NCBI RefSeq assembly: GCF_018977255.1
Contig: NW_024704742.1
Coordinates: forward strand, 81,284,001 to 81,348,000
From: Callorhinchus milii
Lineage: Eukaryota
DNA: 64,000 bases
Direction of reading: 5' to 3'
Position numbers and translations under genes: made by a program. Positions 29,490 to 64,000 of this stretch are shown piece after piece. The first letter of the stretch is position 1; each line of letters opens with the position of its first letter. Under the pieces are notes generated by a model. It searched no databases and was not told the DNA's origin. It saw nothing but the letters and a program-made list of their open reading frames with translations.

Positions 29490-30165
29490 AAAATTGCAAC
29501 TTTGAACCCTTTTCATAAATTTATTTCTCTCTTGAAAGCACTCGATTCCTTTTACGTTTTCAGGAAGTATAGCTTCTTCAATATTTTGCCCAATTGACAT
29601 TTATTTATATGCAAGAGTTGACAGTGAGTGTATTGGCAAGATATTTGACAGGGTTGTGTGTGCGTGGGTGAGTGGGGGAAACATGGTGCGGAGGCATCAA
29701 AACCAGATCTGATCCTGACCACATCCAGTGTTCACACATGCACGTAAGGAGTGGGGTCGTGTCAAGAACCATCTGCCACTCTGTCTGAATATGTAAATTG
29801 TATTGTATCTGTAGGGGTCGGATGTTCGCTTAGCAGTCAATGAAGTTTTAAATATCTGTATCTCAGTTATAAAAGACATATATCAGAGATGTATTGAAAT
29901 ATTTTGAGATTGGTATCTGAGTGTGAGAAATATTGCGAATATCAGTAAAAAAGTGTGAATGAATTGGTTCACCTTTGCAGTGCAGCAGAGTTGTAGAATA
30001 TCTGGGCTAATAGTATAAATAATAATAATCCTTGCATTTGATATAGTGCCTTATCACGTCATTCAGACGTCTCAAAGTGCTTCACAAAATGTACTGTAAA
30101 GTGAATTGACTGGAATTCATTAAGAAGCCTTCCTTAATGGTCATCTCCCCATTCTTCTCTCTCAG

Positions 30166-32674
30166 AAATCTGCGCCCAGGCTCCTAGAGAATGCCACTGA
30201 ACTGAGAAAAGAAAAGAGCAGGAAACAAGCAGATCCACCAAACACTCTTCCTGTAATTCCTGGAGAAGAAAATAAAATGGAGATCGAAGAGCAGCTTCAG
30301 GGATCAAAGAGTGTTACCGTCATCACCCCAAAGGTCACTGTAACAGAGCCTGCTGTTGGAGGTAACCAAACCGATCACTTTGTTAACAAAGGGCGAAATG
30401 GCATTCAGAGTCGAGATGAATCCTTGGACAGCGATGTGGCCAAAGAGATCAGGTATCTGGATGAAGTTCTAGAATCTAACTGCTGCGAGTCCGTGGTGGA
30501 GAATGGCTCAAACACAGCGGCACCTTGCGAGCCAGTTTCAATCGCAGTGGATGGGCACGATCCATCTGTTAGTGTGACGTCAGATAGTCCAGTGTCAGCT
30601 GCCAGCAATGTCATAACCGTTGTCAGAAAAGAGCCAGCTTTCATCCACATGGAGAAGGCGGATGAGGTTAAGTCTAATGGACATTCTCCAAGTACCAGGA
30701 AGGTGGAAACTAGCCCTGAGTTGAACAATGTGGCAAAGGAGCAGCAGATAGACAGCTCCAGGAGGTTTTCGAAGGATGGAGAGGTGGCAATGATCACCCT
30801 GAAAAAAGAAGCCAAGTTTGAGCTCCGAGCCTATCATGAAGACAAAAAACCCTCCAAGCTTTTTGACGACGACGATGGAAAGGAAACCTACAAGATTAAG
30901 AAAACCAGAGCATCCGATGAAATAGCAGAACTGGAACGAGCGAGGCAGGAAGTCATTAGAAGTCAGGCCGTGAAGAAGAACCCGAGTATTGCAGCAAAGT
31001 GGAATCCCCCGCAAGAGAAGCCAATGGAGGCCCATCTAGATCCGGATAAGCTTGAATCGCACAAGAAGTACGCGGAACGTAAGCAGAAGAAGCAGGATGG
31101 AGGTCTGTCCCCGGTGTCTCCCAAACACAAACACCACGTGTTTGTAGCACCCGAGCCTATCAATATCAACCGAGAGGACATTGTCACAGAACAGATAGAC
31201 TTTTCTGCAGCCAGAAGACAGTTTTTAATGATGGAGAATACGTCTCAGCCCAGTACACAGTACATGCACAAGCGACCATTAACCACTAAAGGGGTCTCTA
31301 TAAAGCCGGTGGTAAAGATGTCAGAACCGCCCAAGAAGGGAAGGAATGTGGCTTCGGTTACAGTAAGTGAGTCAGCCCCTCTCCAAAGGGAGGCAGTGCA
31401 AATAGAAGCAACTGAAGTAACTGTGGTCAAAGCTTGCAAAGTCAGTTTTGTACCTGAAGAGGGGCAAGAATCTGGAATTGAAAGGATTTCTGTATCACCA
31501 CAATCTACACCACAGAAGGAAGAGTGGGACGTGGGGCAAAGACTCCGAATCTCCCCCGACCAGTGCATCACTGTCAATGCAACACATGATACAGTCAGCA
31601 ACAGATTGGTAGACGACGAAGGATTTACCAGAGTAAGGGCTGTGTTGACGGTTCTAAATGATGATGATGACAATGATATTTCTGACCATTATTCAACATC
31701 TGTTAGTATTCCTGTACCTCCAGAGGAACTGGATTCTGGCTTGGATGATCTATCCCTCCGATCCCAGGACACGACAGTGCTGGAAACCCTTTCCAATGAC
31801 TTTAGTATTGACAATATCAGTGACAGTGGGGCTTCAAATGAAACCATGAATGTTTCCCTGGACCACTCGCTGGGAGGCTCACAAGAGTTTTCACAGCCAG
31901 CAACACCCCAAGCCATAAACCCTGTTGACAGGGAACATGGCTTTTATGCGGATAAAGAGGAAAGCACTTATAAGAGAGAAGGGATTTTGAAGTGCAGTGA
32001 CAATGGGTTGTACGGTCAGCCCTACTCGCTCGCATTGGATTCAGATCAGCAGCTCCAGTATCAGGCAGAAATTGTGGTGCAGAACGCAATTCAGCTTGCT
32101 CTTGCACAGGAAAACCACACAAACAATCATACAGAAGATGTGTCCCAGAACCAGCCAGTGCTAGTGGAACAGAGAATGGACCTCAATTCTGCGTGTAAAG
32201 CCCAGGCTCCGGCATCAAACCAACCACAAACAGCAGCTCCACTGCAGGAGCATAAAAACTGCACACCAAAGAGTCCACTGCAGGAGCTGCCAGAGCACGA
32301 GGAGAAGAGTTGCTTCCAGCTTCCTGAGGCAGCTGAGCAGAGCAGCGTCACGGAGACCAACGCTGTGTCGCAGCCCTCGCTGTACCGGCCAGAATTCAGC
32401 CCTTTCAGCGACAACGCTAACTACCTGCAACCGCCAGATTATTCCAAAAATAATGTGTTTGTCAGCCACCCGCAGGAACCTGAAGTCATCGCACAGACCG
32501 GACCCTTCAAGCTGCGCTCCCGCAAACAGAAAACACTGTCAATGATTGAGCAGGAAATCAGAGCAGCCCAGGAGCGAGAAGACGAGCTGAGACGCCAAAG
32601 GCAGGCAGTACGGACTGTGCAGAGCCCCACTAAATTCAACCTGCCGTCAGGATGCGCTTCCAAGACAACTCCAG
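30166..32674 (+). CDS. AKAP2: AKAP2 / PALM2-AKAP2 large coding exon (phase 0 start, phase 1 end; internal ATG MEIE at 30277)
   Basis: Acceptor cccattcttctctctcag ends at 30165 and the frame is open from KSAPRLLE. Recognisable AKAP2 motifs: ESLDSDVAKEIRYLDEVLE, LKKEAKFELRAYHEDKKPSKLF, EDIVTEQIDFSAARRQF, EELDSGLDDLSLRSQDTTVLETLSNDFS, GPFKLRSRKQKTLSMIEQEIRAAQERE. Donor CCAG|gtagga at 32674/5. Confidence 0.96.
32053..32106 (+). other. AKAP2: PKA regulatory-subunit-binding amphipathic helix of AKAP2 (LQYQAEIVVQNAIQLALA)
   Basis: Matches the mammalian AKAP2 RII-binding segment LEYQAGLLVQNAIQQAIA (recalled from knowledge). Confidence 0.85.
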
Positions 32675-33550
32675 GTAGGACTCTTAATCCCTCTGTAGGT
32701 GTTGTGCTGTGCACTCAAATCCAGGTTTGGCCACGTAGATCCTGATGAAATCCATGGACAGACTCAATGGGCAAAATGGCTACTCCTGTCCCTATTCTAC
32801 GACATGTCTTGTAATGGGCACTATGTCCTTTGATTGGAGCTGGAGTGAGCTGGATCACTTCTCTCGGTGTGAGTGTAAACACAGCCTTAATAACGTTTTG
32901 CTTTGCTCAGTCAAATAAACTGAGTAGTTTAATTTTGCTAAGTGTTTGAGTTCAGTATTTCTTGCTGGCAGTCAGACAACTCCCACTTACAGGACTTGTC
33001 ACAAAGCCAGAGTGAAGTCATCGGCAATAAATGTCAGTTTTCCTACTAAAATGTCACGTTCTTTCCAGTCCTACACAGGACACAGGAAATGAAATATTGC
33101 GGGATGGCGGGGGGACGGGGTGGGGGGGGAAGAGTCACATTCTTCTGATATGAAAGCCTCCCATTGCCACTAGTGAAGAGGAGGGATGACCGGGTCAACG
33201 GCCAACAATGGCCGGGAGTGACTCAGGCTCTAAGCCAGCAGCCAATTTGAGCGAACAATTTTATTTGTGGATTCATTGGCCAGGACACTGGGAGAAACTT
33301 CCTTCTCTTTTCGAAATACATCTTTAATGTGCATCCAGACAGGCAGACTCTGTGTAATATCTCATCCGAAGGACGACACTGTCAACAATGCAGCACTTCC
33401 CCAGCACTGCCAGCCCTGACTATGAGTTCAAAGTCCCAAAATGGGGCTTGAATTCACAACCTTCTGACTCAGCAACAACAAATTGCACTTGTATAGCACC
33501 CTTCACATCAGAAAGACGTCCCAGGGTGATGGACAGTCAGGGCTTGGCCA

Positions 33551-36458
33551 AACAACAACAACAGCAACAATAACACGATTCCATTTATTGAGCGCCTTTC
33601 ACGTCGGGAGGACGTCCCAAGGCGCTGTAAAGTTGGGTCAGGACCCGAGCAGGGGGGAAATGGTCAGGGTGAGGGGAGGGAAGGGAGGGAGCGAGGAGGG
33701 GGTAGAGAGTCGAGAGGGGAGCTGAAGGCACGGTCAAAGAGAAAGATCTTGAGACCGGTCTTGAAGGAGGAAAGGGAGGAGGCGGCGAAGGCACTGGGGG
33801 ATAGAGTTCCAGAGCCTCGGGGCTGAGAGGCTGAAGGCCCGGCCACCGATGGGAGGGCGGTTGGGGCAAGGGATGTGGAGCAGACCGGAGCCAGAGGAAC
33901 GGAGGGTACGGGCAGGTAGGTAGGGGGATAGTAGGTCGGAGAGGTAGGAGGGAGCAAGGCCGTGAATGGCCTTGTAGGTGAGGATGAGGATCTTGAATTC
34001 GATCCTCTGGGGGATGGGGAGCCAGTGGAGGCGAGCGAGGGTGGGAGTGATGTGGTCCCGAAGCCTGGTGCGGGACAGTACACGAGCTGCAGAGTTCTGA
34101 ATGACCTGCAGCTTGTGGAGGGAGGTGGCGGGAAGGCCGGCGAGGAGAGAGTTCCCATAGTCCAGCCTTGAGGTGATAAAGGCGTGGACCAGGTTTCAGC
34201 AGCGTGAGGGGTGAGGTAGTGCCGTAGTCTGGCGATGTTCCGGAGGTGATGGAAGGCGGTGCCAGTTGTGGTGCGGATGTGAGGGAGAAAGGACAGCTCA
34301 GGGTCGAACAGAACCCGAGGTTCCTGACTGGCTTTGAGAGGTGGAGAGTGCAGCCTTGCTTTCCGATGCTGTCAGCGCCTGAGGTGCGGAGGCGCTGACG
34401 TGAGCCAATCAGGAGGGCCTCAGTTTTACGCACGTTGAGCTGAAGAAAGTTGTCTCTCGTCCAGGACTCGATGTCGGACAGGCAGCTGTCAGGACATCGG
34501 TGGTCGTGGAGTTGAGGGTAGAGGAGGAAAGGTAGAGTTGGGTGTCATCCGCATACATGTGGAAGTTAACCCCATGTCTGCGGATGATGTCACCAAGGGG
34601 GAGCATATAGAGGGTGAAGAGGAGGGGACCGAGGACAGAGCCCTGAGGGACACCACACGAGACAGTGCGGGGGGTGGAGGAAAAGCCATTCGTGGAAACA
34701 AAGTATAAACCGTGGGAAAGGTACGAACTAAACCACTCAAGGACAGGGCCTTGAAGGTTGAGGTGGGAGGACAAGCGGTGGAGGAGGATAGCGTGGTCGA
34801 CCGTATCGAATGCTGCCGATAGGTCGATGAGGGTGAGGAGGCAGAGGGAGCCCTGGTCGCAGATGGTCAGGATGTCATTGGTGACCTTGACCAGGGCGGT
34901 TTGTGTGCTATGGGCAGCACGGAAACCTGACTGAAGGGGTTCGAATAATGAATGGGTGGAGAGGAAAGAGCGCAGCTGGGAGGCGACAACTCGTTCCAGG
35001 ACCTTGGACAGGAAGGGGAGGTTGGAGATGGGCCGGTAGCTTGATAGCTGCGACGCATCAAGGGAGGGTTTTTTCAAGGTGGGAGTGATGGTGGCAGTTT
35101 TTAAGGGAATGGGAACAGAGCCAGAGGAGAGGGACAGGTTGACGATGTCTGTGATATGTGGGGCAAGGAGGTGGAGCTGGGAGATAAGGAGTGGAGTGGG
35201 GATGGGGTCAAGGGAGCAGGTGGTGGGTTTCAGGGATAGGATGAGTTTGGTGACAGAGGGTGGGGAAACGGGTACGAAAATGTGTAGGGGAGGATGGGTA
35301 GGAGTCGGAGTGTGGGAGGGAGGGGGTGGGGGTGGGTGGATGTTGGAGGGGAAGTGACCGCGGAGCGGATTCCCTTGATTTTGGATTCAAGGAAATCCAG
35401 CATCTCCTCGCAGTGAAGGTTGGAGGAGATGACCTGCGCGGGGTGGCGGGGGGGACGGAGGAGTCGGGATGTGGTAGAAAACAGTAGCCTGGGGTTGTTC
35501 TTCGCCTCCAGGATTATCCTGGAGTAGAAGGATGACTTGGCCGAGTGGAGTGGTAGATTTTGAGGAAGTTCAGCCAGATTTGTCGGTGGACCGTTAGGCC
35601 AGATTTGACGCAGGTGCGTTCAGCGGCCCGCACCTGGCTCTTCAGTGAGCGGAGGTGGGTGGTGAACCAGGGGGAGGAGCGAGAGTAGGAGACAGTACGA
35701 GAGGTGATGGGGGCAAGAGTGTCGAGTGTGGAGGAGAGGGTGTTGTGGAGGAGGGTGAGAGGAGAAGAGGGGTCAGTGAGGGTTGAAGGCCAGAGGGAGA
35801 GGAGTTCAGAGGACTCCAAGGCAGCGGTTAGGGATTGTGGGGGTAACTTCTTCCAGGGGCGGTAGAAGATGGTGGTGGGTCTGGTGGAGGTGGGGAGGGG
35901 GTGGAGGTGGTGAAGGAGATGAAGTGGTGGTCGGAGACGGCCTTGTCGGTGATAGTGACATCCGAGACACTGAGGCCCCGGGTGATCACCAAATCGAGTG
36001 GGTGGCCGTGACTGTGAGTGGGGGAGTTGATGTGGAGGGAGAGGTTGAGCGAGGAGAGCAGGGAAGAGAAATCTGAGGAGATGGAGCAGGAGGGGGTTGA
36101 AGTCGCCCAGGATGATGAGGCGATCAGAGCAGGGGCAGAGAGATGTAAGAAGTGTCGAAATATCGGAGATGAAGGTGGGAGAGGTTTTAGGGGGCCGGTA
36201 GAGGAGGAGGATTTTGAGTGAGAGGAAGGAGGGGTGGGAGAGGGTGAGGTGCTCGAAAGAGGGGAAAGAGCCAGAGGAGTAGGGGGATAGGGCAAGTGGT
36301 GTCCTTGAGATAAGGGCTACACCACCGCCACGGCGGTTGGGGCGAGGGATGTGGTGGGAGGTGTAGCCGGGTGGTGTGGCCTCTGTGAGGGGGAAGATGT
36401 CGCCTGGGGTGAGCCAGGTTTCCGTTAAGGCCATGATGTCAATGCTCTCATCAAGGGG
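33551..36458 (-). mobile_element. L2-clade LINE, ~2.9 kb, 5'-truncated in the endonuclease domain, frameshifted
   Basis: APE endonuclease motifs (MALTETWL, GGGVALI, YRPP, ILGDFN, HGHPLDLV) and RT motifs ([44 protein letters not shown]). 3' tail ends in (TTG)n. Confidence 0.93.
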
Positions 36459-57724: not shown

Positions 57725-58042
57725 AATAATATAATAATCATTCTTGCATTTGATATAACGCTTTTCACGTCTTCTAGACATCTCAAAGCGCTTCACAGAA
57801 TATACTGTAAAGTGAATTGACTGTATATTTGTGGGCAAAATGTGGCAGCCAATTGCGCACAGCAGTGTCCCACAAACAGTCGTGGATTGAAAATAACCAA
57901 TTTTTTTGTTGTTGTTTTTGGAGGGATTATTAGTAGGCGTGTGGAGTAAGGAAAGTTTCCCAGGGTTTTGCCCTGCCTGGAATTGAACCCAGATGTCTCG
58001 CTTGCAAGGCGAGTGCTCTAACCACTGAGCTACAGGACTCCA
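57725..58042 (-). mobile_element. SINE, short form
   Basis: Reverse complement match from head to tail. Confidence 0.9.
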
Positions 58043-58939
58043 TAATCCTTTAATGAGGTTTGTTTGATTTAATAACTAGCTTAGCAGGGGTTAAAATTAG
58101 CTTTGCTGGATGGGTTGAGGTCAGCTTCTGATTACATTCCATATTTTCCTGGGAAGATGTTCACTTCTCTGAACATCTTGTAACGTCTTCATCCGAATCT
58201 CAAATAAGTTGGTGAGCCAGCCAGGAGGAAACTGTGTAATTGATCTAGGATTAACTGAGTAAGTCATATAGATAGGTTTCAAAAAGCTAAGTTTGTGAAC
58301 TAGTCAATTGAGATGAAGGAACTGTATTGCAAGAGTGTAAGTTAAGAATAAGTTAAAATATTTGAATTACTTAACAAACCTTGGATTATTACACCACCAT
58401 ATTGATCTTCTCCATCCAAATCTCTTACAACACTACAATGCTGCACAGAGAGTGATGCTCTGGTTAACCTGTTCTTGCAGCTGGGGAGTGGGTAAGTCAG
58501 CAGCAGTTACCATATCCCTGTCAATGCCCCTGGCAGGACATCCCTGCCTAATATTGCCGCCCTCAAAAACAATTCTCTCTCCTCCTTTCAAGGTCTCGGT
58601 ACAAAGCTTAATTCCGATCAGGAATTGAGCAGAGCGGTGAAATAAAATTTACATTAACCCATTTCTTGGCAATGAATATTAACCCAACAAGTTCAAATTA
58701 ACGATTTGAATGAATATTCATGGTACTTCTCGATTGCATATCATTAAAATAAGTTTTCTTCTGGAACAGGGAAGTTATATTTTCTCCTTATGATAAAAAC
58801 TATTCAACGGGTTAGTGAGTCATTCATCACTTCCCTGTAATAGTCATGGCAGGACATATGGTATGAACAGTCTTTATTTTCATGTATTCAAGTGCTTAAA
58901 AGGGACTGAACCAAACCATTCTAACTATCGTTAGTAAAG

Positions 58940-60179
58940 ATGTGTGAATTTGTGCGTACCCTCATTGAGCCTGTGGTCGCTTTGAACCAGATTGGCAGTT
59001 CTTTCTTTGACACTGCTCTCTTGATTGTAGTCCAAGAAAGATATGAAGTTATAAACTCAACTGCTTACAACTCTACACCAACTAATATCAGTGCAGGGGA
59101 AAAACATCAGGATGGTATGACTCGTTTTTTCATGATATACCACATTCTGTCGAAACTGATCACCCTTTTCTCCACCTTCTACTTTGCAAAGCTTGAAGAC
59201 TTCAGGTCAAGAAAGATCATCATTGTTGTGCCTCTCCTGGGCTGCCTTATCTCCAGATCTCTGCTTCTCTTTGTGATCTTTTTCGATCTGCCCTTGGAGG
59301 TGATATTTGCCACAGCCTCATTGGATGGTCTGAGTGGAGGATTCACCACTTACTGGACTGGAGTTGTAGTATTGGTCTGCAGCACCTCTTCAGAGAAGAG
59401 AAGATCAATCAGGCTCATCACGACCGATTTTGCCTATGGATTAGCAGGATTTGTTGGAAGCATCTTATCGGGATACATCTTCCTCCATTTAAAGATATTA
59501 CATTACCATGGCATCATATTGGTAGCTCTCAGCCTTGCTCTGTATGTTGTCAACCTGTTTTATTGTATTTTGGTGTTGAAGATACCACCTAAACAACAAA
59601 AATCTGGACCACAAGGTGACAAAGAGCAGAACGAGGAAAGTGACACATTTACTGAAAAACTGCAATGCGACAGCGCAGGACATTTGGTTAAACATGAGCA
59701 TGTAACAGGTGACATTCAACACAAAAACAGACCACCTGTGGAGAAAACTGAACACAAAACTGCAAGAGTTGTGGATGACAAAAATGGAAGATGTGTGAAT
59801 GGACAGTGCTGCAAAGCTGTATCAAGGATATTCGATGGAATCATCCGAGACAATTGGAGCTCTTGGTGGGCAGATGGTCACGGAGATAAAGGCACTTTGT
59901 GGTTCATGGTTGGGGCTGCTGTGCTTTATGACATGGCTACAAAAGGGGCCATGGATGTGCTGCCAATATTTGTGCTGAATTGGCCTCTCAAATGGAATGC
60001 CGTCCTGCTTGGGTATGGAAATGCCTCAGAGTACGCCATCTACTTCACCAGCTTCCTTACCATTTGTTTGTTTTCCAAATGTGTGAAGGACACCTCCCTC
60101 ATCGTGATTGGAATGCTGTCCTTTTCCGCAGGGATGCTGGTCATGGGCTTTGTCAAGTGGACCTACTTGTATTTCGTTG
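58940..60179 (+). CDS. SLC46A2: SLC46A2-like (TSCOT, MFS transporter) first coding exon, copy A
   Basis: 413 open codons. IEPVVA..Q, DTALL, RK...PLLG..SR, LPLEV, SGGF..YWTG and VL.WPL.WNAV..GYGNA motifs as in SLC46A2. Donor G|gtaagg at 60179/80 (phase 1), where SLC46A2 exon 1 is expected to end. Confidence 0.88.
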
Positions 60180-60334
60180 GTAAGGTTTTTGGTGTCATTT
60201 ACCAAATAGGGCAGTAAAGGCAAAACCAATAGGTCATTTGCTGACAAAAAATCAAGTTAGTGCACTCAACGCAATTATCTATAAAGTGCTTTTAATGTTA
60301 TAGGCATTTCTCAAAATGGTACTTCCCATACAAA

Positions 60335-60690
60335 CCAGCTTGTCGGTTAGCACCTTCAGCTCTGGGTCAGAAGGTTGTGGGTTCAAACCTTATGTTGTGG
60401 CTTGGGTTGCCACTCCGGTCCAGTTCAGTACTGGGGGAGCACTGAGTTGTCGGAGGTGCTATCCTTCAGATGAAGTGTTTAGCTGAGGTCCTGTCTGCTT
60501 GTATAGGTGAATGATAAAGATCCTGAGACACTATTTGAAAAGAGAAGAGAGGTTCTTTTTGTATCCTGGCCAACAATCCTAATAAACTGATCAATCACTA
60601 CTTAGCTGTTTATGGATCTTTGCTGTGTGCCAATTGGCTGTTACTTTTGCATTCAAAACCAAAGTCACCACACTTGACAACAATTGCTTT
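60335..60690 (+). mobile_element. Old DeuSINE-like element in the intron after SLC46A2 exon A
   Basis: tcagaaggttgtgggttcaaa head; ggtgctatccttcagatga; aaagatcctgagacactatttgaa; gctgtgtgccaattggctg. Confidence 0.75.
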
Positions 60691-60889
60691 ATAGATGATT
60701 CAATGCAAAATCAAAGCTAAAGATTTAATTTTTGCTATCCTTATGTTGTGAAATGAATACCCAATTCTGTGCCGTGGGGCTCTCTCCTAACATAGAGCCA
60801 TGCTATCACCCAAATTAGTTTTATGTAAAATAATCCACAGGAAGACCTGTGGCCCTTTTTAAACACTGTAGAAAACAATTTCCAAATTA

Positions 60890-61210
60890 ACAAGACAAGT
60901 TGAACTTGTAGAGTGCCCTTCATGTAGGATAAAGTCTGAGAGGGCTTCTGAGTAATTGGGTCAGACGCTGAGCAAGGAACAAGAGGGAGGGGGAGGGGAA
61001 TATAGGCAACCTAAAGGTATTAAGGTGGGATTTAAAGACCAGTTGAGAGGACGTGAAGCAGAGGGATGGAGCAGAGAGATCCAGAGGTTAAGAACATAAT
61101 CGCTGAAGGTTCAACAATAATAGTGGTACAGAGGAGGCAGAGCACATGCAGCAGGTCCATGTTAGCTGAGCAGAGGAATGTGTTTGAGAAGATCAGAGAG
61201 ATGGGGAGGT
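60890..61210 (-). mobile_element. Degraded L2 3' fragment between the two SLC46A2 exons
   Basis: Reverse tail (acaagttgaacttgtagagtgcccttcatgt) and purine-rich body. Confidence 0.6.
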
Positions 61211-61254
61211 ACTCAGACTAAACTTTTTTTAAAAAAAATTTGAAGGTAACATTA

Positions 61255-61607
61255 ATACTAATAATCCTTGAATTTGATATAGTGCTTTTAATGCTTTCTA
61301 GATGTCTCAAAGTGCTTCTCAGAATATACTGTGAAGTGAATTGACTGCATTTTTGTGGGCAAAACGCGGCAGCCAATTGCTCAGAGCAGTATCCTACAAA
61401 TAATCGTGGACTGAAGTGATCAAATTATTATTGTTTTTTTTTCTTGAGGGATTATTATTAGGCATGTGAAGAAAGGAAACATGCCCAAGGTTTCACCCTG
61501 CCGGGAAAAGAACCTCGGTCTCTCGTTTGTGAGGCGAGAACTCTAGCCACTGAGCTACAGGACTTAAAAATAATAATAATAATAATTCATTGAGCTACAG
61601 GACTCCA
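61255..61607 (-). mobile_element. SINE, short form, between SLC46A2 exons A and B
   Basis: Reverse complement match, with a duplicated head end (tgagctacaggact x2). Confidence 0.85.
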
Positions 61608-62243
61608 CAAACCAGTAAATCTTGAAAAAGAGAGAAAATGGTCTGGTGGACAAAATTAAAATAATCAATGCCAATGGAGGCGATGTTTGTTAAAAACATA
61701 AATCACTATTGTATTTTGAAAAGAGGTTTAATTCTGCTTCACACACTAGATTCTAGCTTTAGAAAAAAATCTGCATGTTTCATAAGAGTCAAATATTTGG
61801 AATAGTCACAAACAGGTTGGGCGTAACGTAGATTGAAATCATCCAGGATAAGACTAAGCCTTACATTCTTTCACACAAATACGCCTACTACTAATTACAA
61901 ATCCCAGGAGGTTCTAGATATTTACAAATATGCGTCAGTAAAAAAAGAAGATAGTTATCAAACAGGAAATTCAATGTTGCGAGGTCTGCGATCAGAAACA
62001 TTAACATAGGGTCATCAATTTTTTTTTTATTTGTCCTTTGGTGTCAGCCAGCATGATGGATGGAAAACTGATCCTCAAAATGCAGAAACACCAGAAACAG
62101 TGAAACTTTTCAGAAAGGAAAAAAAACGCTTAATTCTGCAGAATTACTGAAGGGAAATAGCAGCCAGACCGGTTTGTAAAGTAAGGCTGGAGAAGAAAAA
62201 AAAGGCACCAAAAATAAAGCGGAGGTTTAATTTGTGAGTGAGG

Positions 62244-63420
62244 ATGTGTTCGAAATTGATTTCTCTCATCGAGCCTGTTGTAGCCTGTAGCCAGATAGCT
62301 AGTGCTCTGTATGATACTGCTCTGCTGATGGTGGTGAAGGAACTCTGCAACTTGAACTCGACCCTCAGGGGCCAGGAGCACAGCTACCAGGGAGGGGTGT
62401 CTCACTTCTACATGATCTACAACCTTGTGGCTGGCCTGACCTCCCTGATCTTCACCTGCACGCTGGCCAGGCTGGGAGACCGCCGTTCCAGGAAGCTCAC
62501 CATATGTGTGCCTCTCCTGGGCTATCTGATCTCCAGGGCTCTGCTTCTCCTCACTATCTTGCTCAGGCTGCCTTTAGAGGTGATGTTCGGAGCGGCTGCA
62601 CTGTACGGTGTGAGTGGTGGCTTCACTGCCTACTGGACCGGTATCATGGCTATAGCCTCAGTTACTTCCTCAGAAGGGAGCAGGGCCACCAAGCTCATTA
62701 CAGTTGAGCTGGTCTATGGGCTATCAGGCTTACTGGGAAGCTTGGCATCTGGTCACATCTTTATCCATTTCAAGATCTCCCATTATCAGGGTGCTGCCCT
62801 GGTCTGTCTTTGTCTTGTTCTTTACACTTTAAGCTTGCTTTATAGCATTTTTGTGCTGAAGGTCCCACCTGAACAGTCAGAACCCGGGACTCTGAGGAAC
62901 CAGCAGCCTGATAGCAGAGGCTTTCCTGAACCTGGACCAGGTGACACAAGCCAGCCTTCAGATGGATCACCATCGGTCAGGCAATCCCCAGCTGAGACAT
63001 CTAACTGTTTGGCTGACAGCGGGCAAGGATACCCGAGAACTGTGGACAGGACTCCCTGGGAGACTTCAGGATTACCAGATGACCAGGACAACACAAGCTC
63101 TCCAATTGCAAGCAGTGTTTCTGTGGATATATTCACTCTTGGGCTGCTGCTTGCGGGTGGAGTGTTGTTTGAGTTAGCAGTGACAGGTGGAATAGATGTG
63201 CTGTCCATATTTGTGCTAAAGGAGCCTCTCAGTTGGAATGCTGTCTGGGTTGGATATGGGAATGCTGCAGGATATTGCACATTCATGACCAGTTACTTGG
63301 GAGTCAGGTTCTTTTCCAGGTGTATGAAGAATACTTCCTTGATAGTGATCGGAATGGTATCCTTTTCCTCAGGGATACTGATCATGGCATTCGTGAAGTG
63401 GACTTTCCTCTTTTTTATTG
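62244..63420 (+). CDS. SLC46A2: SLC46A2-like first coding exon, copy B
   Basis: ATG at 62244 (the track starts at an upstream GTG); 392 open codons. IEPVVACSQIAS.LYD, FYMIYNLV.GL, GDRRSRK, FVLKEPLSWNAVWVGYGNAAGY. Donor G|gtaaga at 63420/1 (phase 1). Confidence 0.9.
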
Positions 63421-64000
63421 GTAAGAGCCATCATCCTTTACACAAACTGTATTTTCAAGGTCAAAGCTGCATGGCCTGCTGTCAATTGAGGCCATTCATG
63501 GATTTTAGTGAAATAGCAAATGTATTTGGACATTAAAACTATGTAAGTTGTAGCGTGTATACAGAAAGTTCACAGAAAATACAGGATGACTCCTTTGTGA
63601 GGTGGTAGATGGGTTCCATATAATGCAAGCTCATCTTATAATTCTTTGACTGAGCTTTCAATCATCTTTCCCTTTCCCACCTCCTGGGTTCCCATCCCTG
63701 GCTTGGGTGACCATCTGGCAAATATAAAAGCATCTAAATCAACTAAAATGAGAGAGAGGTTATGTTTTGATAGTGGCATCTTATAAAGTCATAAAATGAT
63801 AATTAATGCTCATCATATAGTGTTTTAATGTTGCAGTATGTCAAAGCACTTCATAAGTAACTGCTATCAAATCCGTCTGTTGCTGTCTCCCTCCAGGATT
63901 CTATGTTGCGTGAAGAGCTCTGTATAAATGTTGTTGTTGTCATCAGACATGAAGTCCTTGATGAGAGCTAATTTTCTTCAGTTGAACCTCAACAAGACCG

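Follow-up and report, generated by a model that had tools for sequence, protein, structure and literature searches.

Why two large coding exons of the transporter gene SLC46A2 stand in tandem in Callorhinchus milii, and what each of them encodes, is the question posed by the 64,000-nucleotide stretch of DNA analyzed here (contig NW_024704742.1, positions 81,284,001 to 81,348,000, forward strand; hereafter the window). An earlier note on this DNA proposed that the two exons, designated A and B, are variable first exons in the style of the UGT1A and protocadherin loci that are joined to a common set of exons further downstream. The analysis described below indicates that one SLC46A2 gene probably makes two transporters from anciently duplicated alternative 5′ coding exons, each of which would be completed by a common C-terminal module.

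Exon A (58940..60179, + strand) consists of an ATG-initiated frame of 413 codons plus one nucleotide (1240 nt) and encodes an SLC46A2 paralogue, termed A-type. Exon B (62244..63420, +) is built in the same way from 392 codons plus one nucleotide (1177 nt) and encodes the B-type, or SLC46A2. The ATG-initiated open reading frames around the two exons extend over 58940..60217 (425 amino acids, aa) and 62244..63536 (430 aa), respectively. Exon A terminates at the donor TTCGTTG/gtaagg (60179/60180) and exon B at TTATTG/gtaaga (63420/63421), where the slash marks the exon end; these phase-1 donors (G/GTAAGG and G/GTAAGA) interrupt a homologous residue within the sequences KWTYLYFV and KWTFLFFI. The products of A and B are 44-48% identical (BLASTP: 184/419 residues, 44%, E 2e-101), with values of 53% (109/205) in transmembrane segments 1-6, 56% (53/95) in segments 7-10 and 26% (22/86) in the central loop. 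Neither frame is interrupted by a stop codon, and none of 2000 base shuffles of A, and none of 2000 of B, was stop-free (mean of 23.5 and 17.4 stops, respectively). The reading frames, donor sequences and BLASTP alignment confirm the description in the earlier note of two intact ATG-initiated exons of 413 and 392 codons that lack stops and end at homologous phase-1 donors. The best protein matches of both exons were entries labelled SLC46A2 or thymic stromal cotransporter by their sources, and the B product was 99-100% identical to XP_007890254.1/.2.

The exons that encode the remainder of the protein were sought by tblastn with three full-length proteins (E<=10) in the window and in 49 kb downstream of it. 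The C-terminal 99 residues were matched once only, as three exons after B that lie past the end of the window at window-equivalent positions 66026-66109, 67340-67496 and 67788-67845 (+), all flanked by AG and GT. With boundaries refined, these exons 2-4 occupy positions 81350026-81350109, 81351340-81351496 and 81351788-81351845 of C1, the contig that carries the window. The set begins 2.6 kb past B, and positions 63421..64000 (+) constitute the first part of the intron that leads to it. B joined to exons 2-4 translates exactly to RefSeq XP_007890254.2 (P0149, 491 aa). A joined to the same three exons provides 512 codons without an internal stop and with the same 99-aa tail as P0149. The shared downstream exons that had been postulated for A and B were thereby located as one set past B with which A is in frame.

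The 2,064-nt interval between A and B (60180-62243) is occupied by interspersed repeats and is without a 3′ exon. The tblastn search gave no match to the C-terminal 99 residues within this interval, and local alignment of exon 2 DNA with 60180-62243 produced a score that was reached by 187 of 200 shuffles, both of which agree with the earlier statement that no 3′ exon separates A from B. A decayed exon 2 at a splice acceptor at 62048, suggested by a faint likeness by eye, was also considered and rejected: 393 of 500 shuffles reached the score observed when exon 2 plus its flanks was aligned with 61988-62243. The earlier portrayal of the interval as mostly repeats was borne out for two high-copy elements, one of which has a tRNA-like head. 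The repeat at 60300..60660 yielded 3284 first-look candidates genome-wide, of which 40 were scored and, the self-match excepted, were 70-77% identical. The repeat at 61430-61620 yielded 3057 first-look candidates, with scored copies 84-89% identical, and includes at 61493..61564 (-) the tRNA-like head of a high-copy short interspersed nuclear element (SINE) which was identified as tRNA-Val(cac) by ARAGORN and scored 34.3 bits with the Rfam tRNA model.

Genome-wide searches (991.5 Mb) with A and with B recovered exon-1 copies as A, B, a paralogue on C21 and distant SLC46 relatives on C4, C10 and C3. No third copy was present on any part of C1, the window and the 49 kb that follow it included, contrary to the suggestion that more variable exons could lie beyond position 64000. 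Exon 3 was reported in four places in the genome, two of which had E<1e-5: this locus and the C21 paralogue with its own copy. As there is one set of 3′ exons and only A and B as copies of exon 1, the locus can be summed up as two heads on one tail, with no variable exons beyond these; the short distance between B and the first constant exon leaves no room for more. A tandem arrangement of this type might be an artefact of assembly. This was judged unlikely, as the RefSeq numbers of A and B in the older assembly are adjacent and both exons are located on one contig of 139,202,109 bases in the newer assembly. The annotation of the shark Heptranchias perlo implies the same two-exon layout. Between the older and newer assemblies exon B differs at 4/392 residues (P0001 compared with P0149) and exon A at 1/355 (P0121 compared with the window).

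The dependence of exon A on the common tail was assessed on an AlphaFold model, made with a 35-sequence alignment, of SLC46A2 isoform X1 of Heptranchias perlo (XP_067839705.1; P0021) which is a full-length A-type protein. The model possesses 12 long helices (predicted local distance difference test, pLDDT, 80.6; predicted template modelling score, pTM, 0.79) and its best match among solved structures is the folate transporter PCFT (7bc6_A, E 1.8e-15, TM 0.80 to target). The exon-1 part of P0021 stops at residue 418, five residues into helix 10 which spans residues 413-440. In the model, exon 1 therefore accounts for nine helices and one turn of the tenth; the remainder of helix 10 and helices 11-12 come from the shared exons. 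The figure of about ten helices per exon in the earlier note was corrected accordingly to nine full helices and the initial five residues of the tenth. Because exon 1 ends at this point, A alone is not a whole 12-helix transporter, and the model predicts that C. milii A has a complete 12-helix fold of the major facilitator superfamily (MFS) only if it is joined to exons 2-4. The contention that A gives a complete transporter only with the shared 3′ exons is upheld by the position of the exon border inside helix 10.

The age of the duplication was examined in a maximum-likelihood tree built from exon-1 columns alone (28 rows, 351 of 527 columns, with the partial Pristiophorus row left out). A and B were placed inside the SLC46A2 group which was split from the distant C4 and C10 paralogues with support of 100/99. 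C. milii A paired with Heptranchias X1 at 100/100, and all elasmobranch B-type sequences formed one clade at 97/96. The node that unites A with all cartilaginous-fish B sequences had support of 64/44 and neither dates the duplication relative to the split from bony vertebrates nor fixes the position of C. milii B. A species-specific duplication was rejected: forcing C. milii A and B together cost 55 log-likelihood units with a p value of 2.7e-8 in the approximately unbiased test (p-AU), the group having been named after the tree was seen. As A groups with shark X1, the duplication predates the chimaera-shark split. That split took place on the order of 400 million years ago. The grouping of A with X1 and the rejection of the A plus B grouping agree with the assertion in the earlier note that the copies are old.

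Pairwise comparisons displayed the same pattern. The orthologues of C. milii and Heptranchias are 59.4% identical for A and 60.6% for B, compared with 50% for the cross-comparisons; for C. milii A specifically, identity was 59.4% with the exon-1 part of X1 and 50.1% with that of X2. The first exons of Heptranchias X1 (A-type) and X2 (B-type) differ from each other, and the tails are identical at 99/99 residues. P0129 of Pristiophorus japonicus, a third A-type sequence, matches X1 at 80.9% identity over 235 aa. Other SLC46A2-like sequences were noted. The C21 gene, a third SLC46A2-like gene of C. milii, has a large first exon (C21:5177229-5178185, L003) that is 45% identical to B, includes a short central loop and starts METLLSC. 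The gene has its own exon 3 (C21:5181689-5181838) and was sister in the tree to all SLC46A2, including that of bony vertebrates, at 72/85. Mustelus asterias has two separate B-type 'SLC46A2-like' proteins (P0012, P0019) that paired in the tree at 80/64, a pairing that suggests a separate and more recent duplication, either of the entire gene or of the first exon.

Conservation of the two exons indicates that both are under constraint. Among 67 columns with at least 95% conservation across 23 other SLC46A2 rows, the A-type retains 53 in C. milii and 60 in Heptranchias. The ratio of nonsynonymous to synonymous substitution rates (dN/dS) for A versus B was 0.24-0.45 in the helix regions, and thus not near 1, with dS near saturation. 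Terminal branch lengths in C. milii are 0.48 for A and 0.47 for B. The equal orthologue identities, the retained conserved columns and the dN/dS values argue that A and B are both constrained, and both copies appear to have been kept by selection since before the chimaera-shark split. In both A-type orthologues, six near-invariant positions are changed alike (L82F, Y102C, H179Y, V334T, G364E and F368Y). The A-type also has a lysine at position 335 in helix 7 and a glutamate at position 364 in helix 8, sites that are charged in 2/23 and 0/23 of the other rows, respectively. The shared changes fit functional divergence of the A-type rather than decay. We tentatively raise the possibility that cartilaginous fishes have kept, from a time before chimaeras and sharks diverged, a two-headed SLC46A2 that makes two transporters with different helices 1-9 and a common module of helices 10-12, and in which the lysine in helix 7 and the glutamate in helix 8 of the A-type give a substrate preference different from that of B. 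If this proves true, the substrate of A could be a different immune messenger or a bacterial cell-wall fragment.

Database models place both exons downstream of splice acceptors. Exon B is preceded by a leader (62048..62243, +) that begins at a 3′ splice acceptor (...tgtcag/CC) after a T-rich tract and which, in the frame of A, reads 18 codons and then TGA at 62101-62103. As A joined to the B exon stops at the latter positions, a transcript with both exons cannot encode a full protein from the ATG of A. Upstream of A is a probable non-coding leader exon (58455..58545, +) that is present in Ensembl-derived models only (P0150, P0003). The N-terminal extensions of these two models map to it in two different frames with the same end base, 58545, and it joins acceptors that end at 58934 or 58939, 5 nt apart and directly before the ATG of A. 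At 58545/58546 the next bases in this assembly are GC instead of GT, which reflects either a GC-AG intron or an assembly difference. Because acceptors are placed upstream of both ATGs (58934/58939 for A and 62047 for B), neither A nor B is clearly a true first exon, and an internal position in a transcript seems possible for each of them. Three Ensembl-derived models (P0002, P0003 and P0150), entered in UniProt as SLC46A2 of this species, have the first 11-20 codons of A followed by the homologous position of B (58940-59000, 62244-62304), with parts of the central loop of B dropped. Their junctions are GT...AG pairs within near-identical sequence. These A-to-B junctions were not accepted as real splices as they are likely to be alignment or template-switch artefacts, and the leader exon upstream of A was all that was taken from these models.

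The arrangement proposed for the C. milii gene is one in which A and B serve as alternative 5′ coding exons, both starting with an ATG and both providing helices 1-9 with the first turn of helix 10, and in which the three short 3′ exons common to both would complete helix 10 and add helices 11-12. B with exons 2-4 would give the annotated 491-aa transporter. Splicing of the A donor at 60179 to the exon 2 acceptor at 66026, with skipping of the 1.37-kb exon B, would produce a complete 512-aa transporter. If the A donor were joined to the 62048 acceptor instead, the frame would end after 18 codons and the both-exon transcript would probably be non-productive. Whether A or B is used could depend on separate promoters, or on either/or splicing from an upstream leader common to the two. 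The Heptranchias isoforms, with their different first exons and identical tails, favor the core idea of the earlier note that A is spliced past B to the shared exons. We infer that the A-to-exon-2 mRNA is likely to be made in C. milii and that the A form would be a working transporter.

Several observations weigh against this arrangement. RefSeq XP_042201720.1 (P0148, 431 aa), whose residues 1-413 are exon A at 100% identity, is filed as a separate gene and is reproduced exactly by splicing 60179 to 62048 with a stop at 62101-62103. It is the only RefSeq model for A in C. milii, and it joins A to 62048 and not to exon 2: direct splicing to the first constant exon is found for B in RefSeq and for A in the Heptranchias annotation, but not for A in C. 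milii RefSeq. The 62048 acceptor lies 196 nt upstream of the ATG of B, follows a long T-rich tract and is strong-looking, and the Heptranchias X1 model could be partly computational. Moreover, A-type proteins were found in three species only. No listed entry from the annotated galeomorph sharks or rays was of the A-type, from which it follows that exon A can be lost. In the best 120 of 502 matches to a Heptranchias X1 query, only the C. milii cluster was A-type apart from the query, and the matches listed in protein searches included no transcript-derived (Logan) A-type protein. Lastly, Pfam family MFS_1 matches the full-length B product P0149 (9.6e-13), but no Pfam family was detected in the exon-1 products alone, in truncated P0148 or in the full-length A-type P0021.

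A rival explanation, in line with the RefSeq filing for C. milii, is that exon A is a separate gene whose sole product, made through the 60179 to 62048 splice, is the 431-aa protein of nine helices and a short polar tail. Such a product might regulate or partner the full transporter, or serve another role. The exact match of XP_042201720.1 to A joined to 62048, the strong pyrimidine tract of this acceptor and the separate filing of the older record, XP_007890253.1 (P0121), are in its favor. Nevertheless, this explanation is unlikely: the product would break off five residues into helix 10 and lack the last three (10-12) of the 12 helices, no resemblance was seen for the 18-codon tail, with exon 2 matching the interval no better than shuffles do, and the orthologous exon of Heptranchias is modelled with the shared tail. 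In addition, the stop of such an mRNA would sit far upstream of later junctions, a position that usually triggers mRNA decay. The C. milii RefSeq entry for exon A as a separate gene of 431 aa is probably incomplete.

In another rival explanation, exon A in C. milii gives non-productive RNA only, by the 62048 join or by read-through, and is being lost here while it still works in squalomorph sharks. The occurrence of the A-type in only three species, which signifies that loss occurs, is consistent with this proposal, as are the conserved columns lost (14/67 in C. milii A versus 7/67 in Heptranchias A) and the loop motif after helix 2 which is LEDF in C. milii A versus LGD(R/L/Q) in the other rows. 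However, the intact 413-codon frame, unmatched by any of the shuffles, the retained donor and phase, a terminal branch no longer than that of B, and the differences between old and new assemblies (1/355 residues in A and 4/392 in B) make ongoing decay quite improbable. A true array of the UGT1A or clustered protocadherin type, with own promoters, no upstream acceptors, direct splicing to constant exons and further exons nearby, would account for two homologous ATG-initiated exons that precede one constant set and for the X1 and X2 isoforms of Heptranchias. It is highly improbable nonetheless and is largely refuted on exon number: there are two copies only, and neither the chromosome, the window nor the following 49 kb holds a third, the constant exons follow B too closely to leave space for more, and in the database models each ATG is preceded by an acceptor. 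The parallel with UGT1A and protocadherins drawn in the earlier note consequently holds for the one constant 3′ set and the logic of variable heads, but not for an array.

The remainder of the window contains other features. An 873-codon open frame at 30124-32745 (+) matches the AKAP2 C-terminus family (PF15304) only weakly (22.3 bits, below the cut-off of 27 bits) and is probably a large exon of an upstream AKAP2/PALM2AKAP2-like gene on the same strand. Copies of one retrotransposon family are distributed on both strands at 13.2-17.9, 25.8-27.0, 33.6-36.7, 40.5-41.1 and 54.5-55.4 kb. They have long similar frames in common and make up the GC-rich blocks of the window, and the copy at 34409-35386 (-) matches reverse transcriptase (RVT_1, 2.5e-31). 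A tRNA-like element at 57968-58039 (-), ~900 nt upstream of exon A, scored 54.9 bits with the Rfam tRNA model; it is probably a young SINE head and not a tRNA gene because its frame resembles those of other SINE copies in the window.

The locus can be compared with SLC46A2 (TSCOT) of other vertebrates, to which B plus exons 2-4 corresponds as the annotated C. milii 'thymic stromal cotransporter homolog'. The B product is 47-49% identical to the bird, reptile, frog and lungfish forms. The proteins have the same 12-helix MFS fold as PCFT (PDB 7bc6), the best structural match, and the gene structure, a large first coding exon followed by a trio of short 3′ exons, is the same. The difference is that the large exon is present twice in tandem in C. 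milii, with the A-type of C. milii and Heptranchias altering the six otherwise near-invariant positions and adding lysine 335 and glutamate 364. Mammalian SLC46A2 is reported as a cGAMP importer and as a muropeptide transporter (10.1101/2020.04.15.043299, 10.1101/2022.09.29.509906), with which the functions cited in the earlier note agree. The direct counterpart is SLC46A2 of Heptranchias perlo whose X1 and X2 isoforms correspond to exon types A and B with the same common tail; in C. milii, by contrast, RefSeq lists them as two genes and assigns a truncated protein to A. The RefSeq isoforms of one shark thus already imply the arrangement. In the literature on SLC46A2 with an alternative first exon, shark or Callorhinchus, no title or abstract opening indicated a paper on a two-first-exon arrangement. 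If the arrangement is real, exchange of most of a transporter by alternative 5′ exons can persist for hundreds of millions of years, and a natural pair of proteins that differ in nine of twelve helices and are otherwise common could help to map the helices that set substrate choice.

At UGT1A and clustered protocadherin loci, variable first exons with their own promoters are joined to constant exons, and the variable exon encodes most of the ligand-facing part of the protein. The C. milii locus resembles these systems in its variable 5′ exon and in the common C-terminus from shared 3′ exons, but differs in that there are two exons and no array, and in that acceptors are annotated upstream of both. 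A closer likeness is to tandem duplicated alternative exons, such as mutually exclusive exons and duplicated alternative first exons, although the C. milii unit is unusually large (~1.2 kb, three quarters of the protein) and has its own start codon. Like such exons, A and B are adjacent and homologous, have the same phase and donor, are both conserved across species, and break the frame if included jointly. The C. milii locus is therefore probably one of duplicated alternative 5′ exons, a known kind of arrangement.

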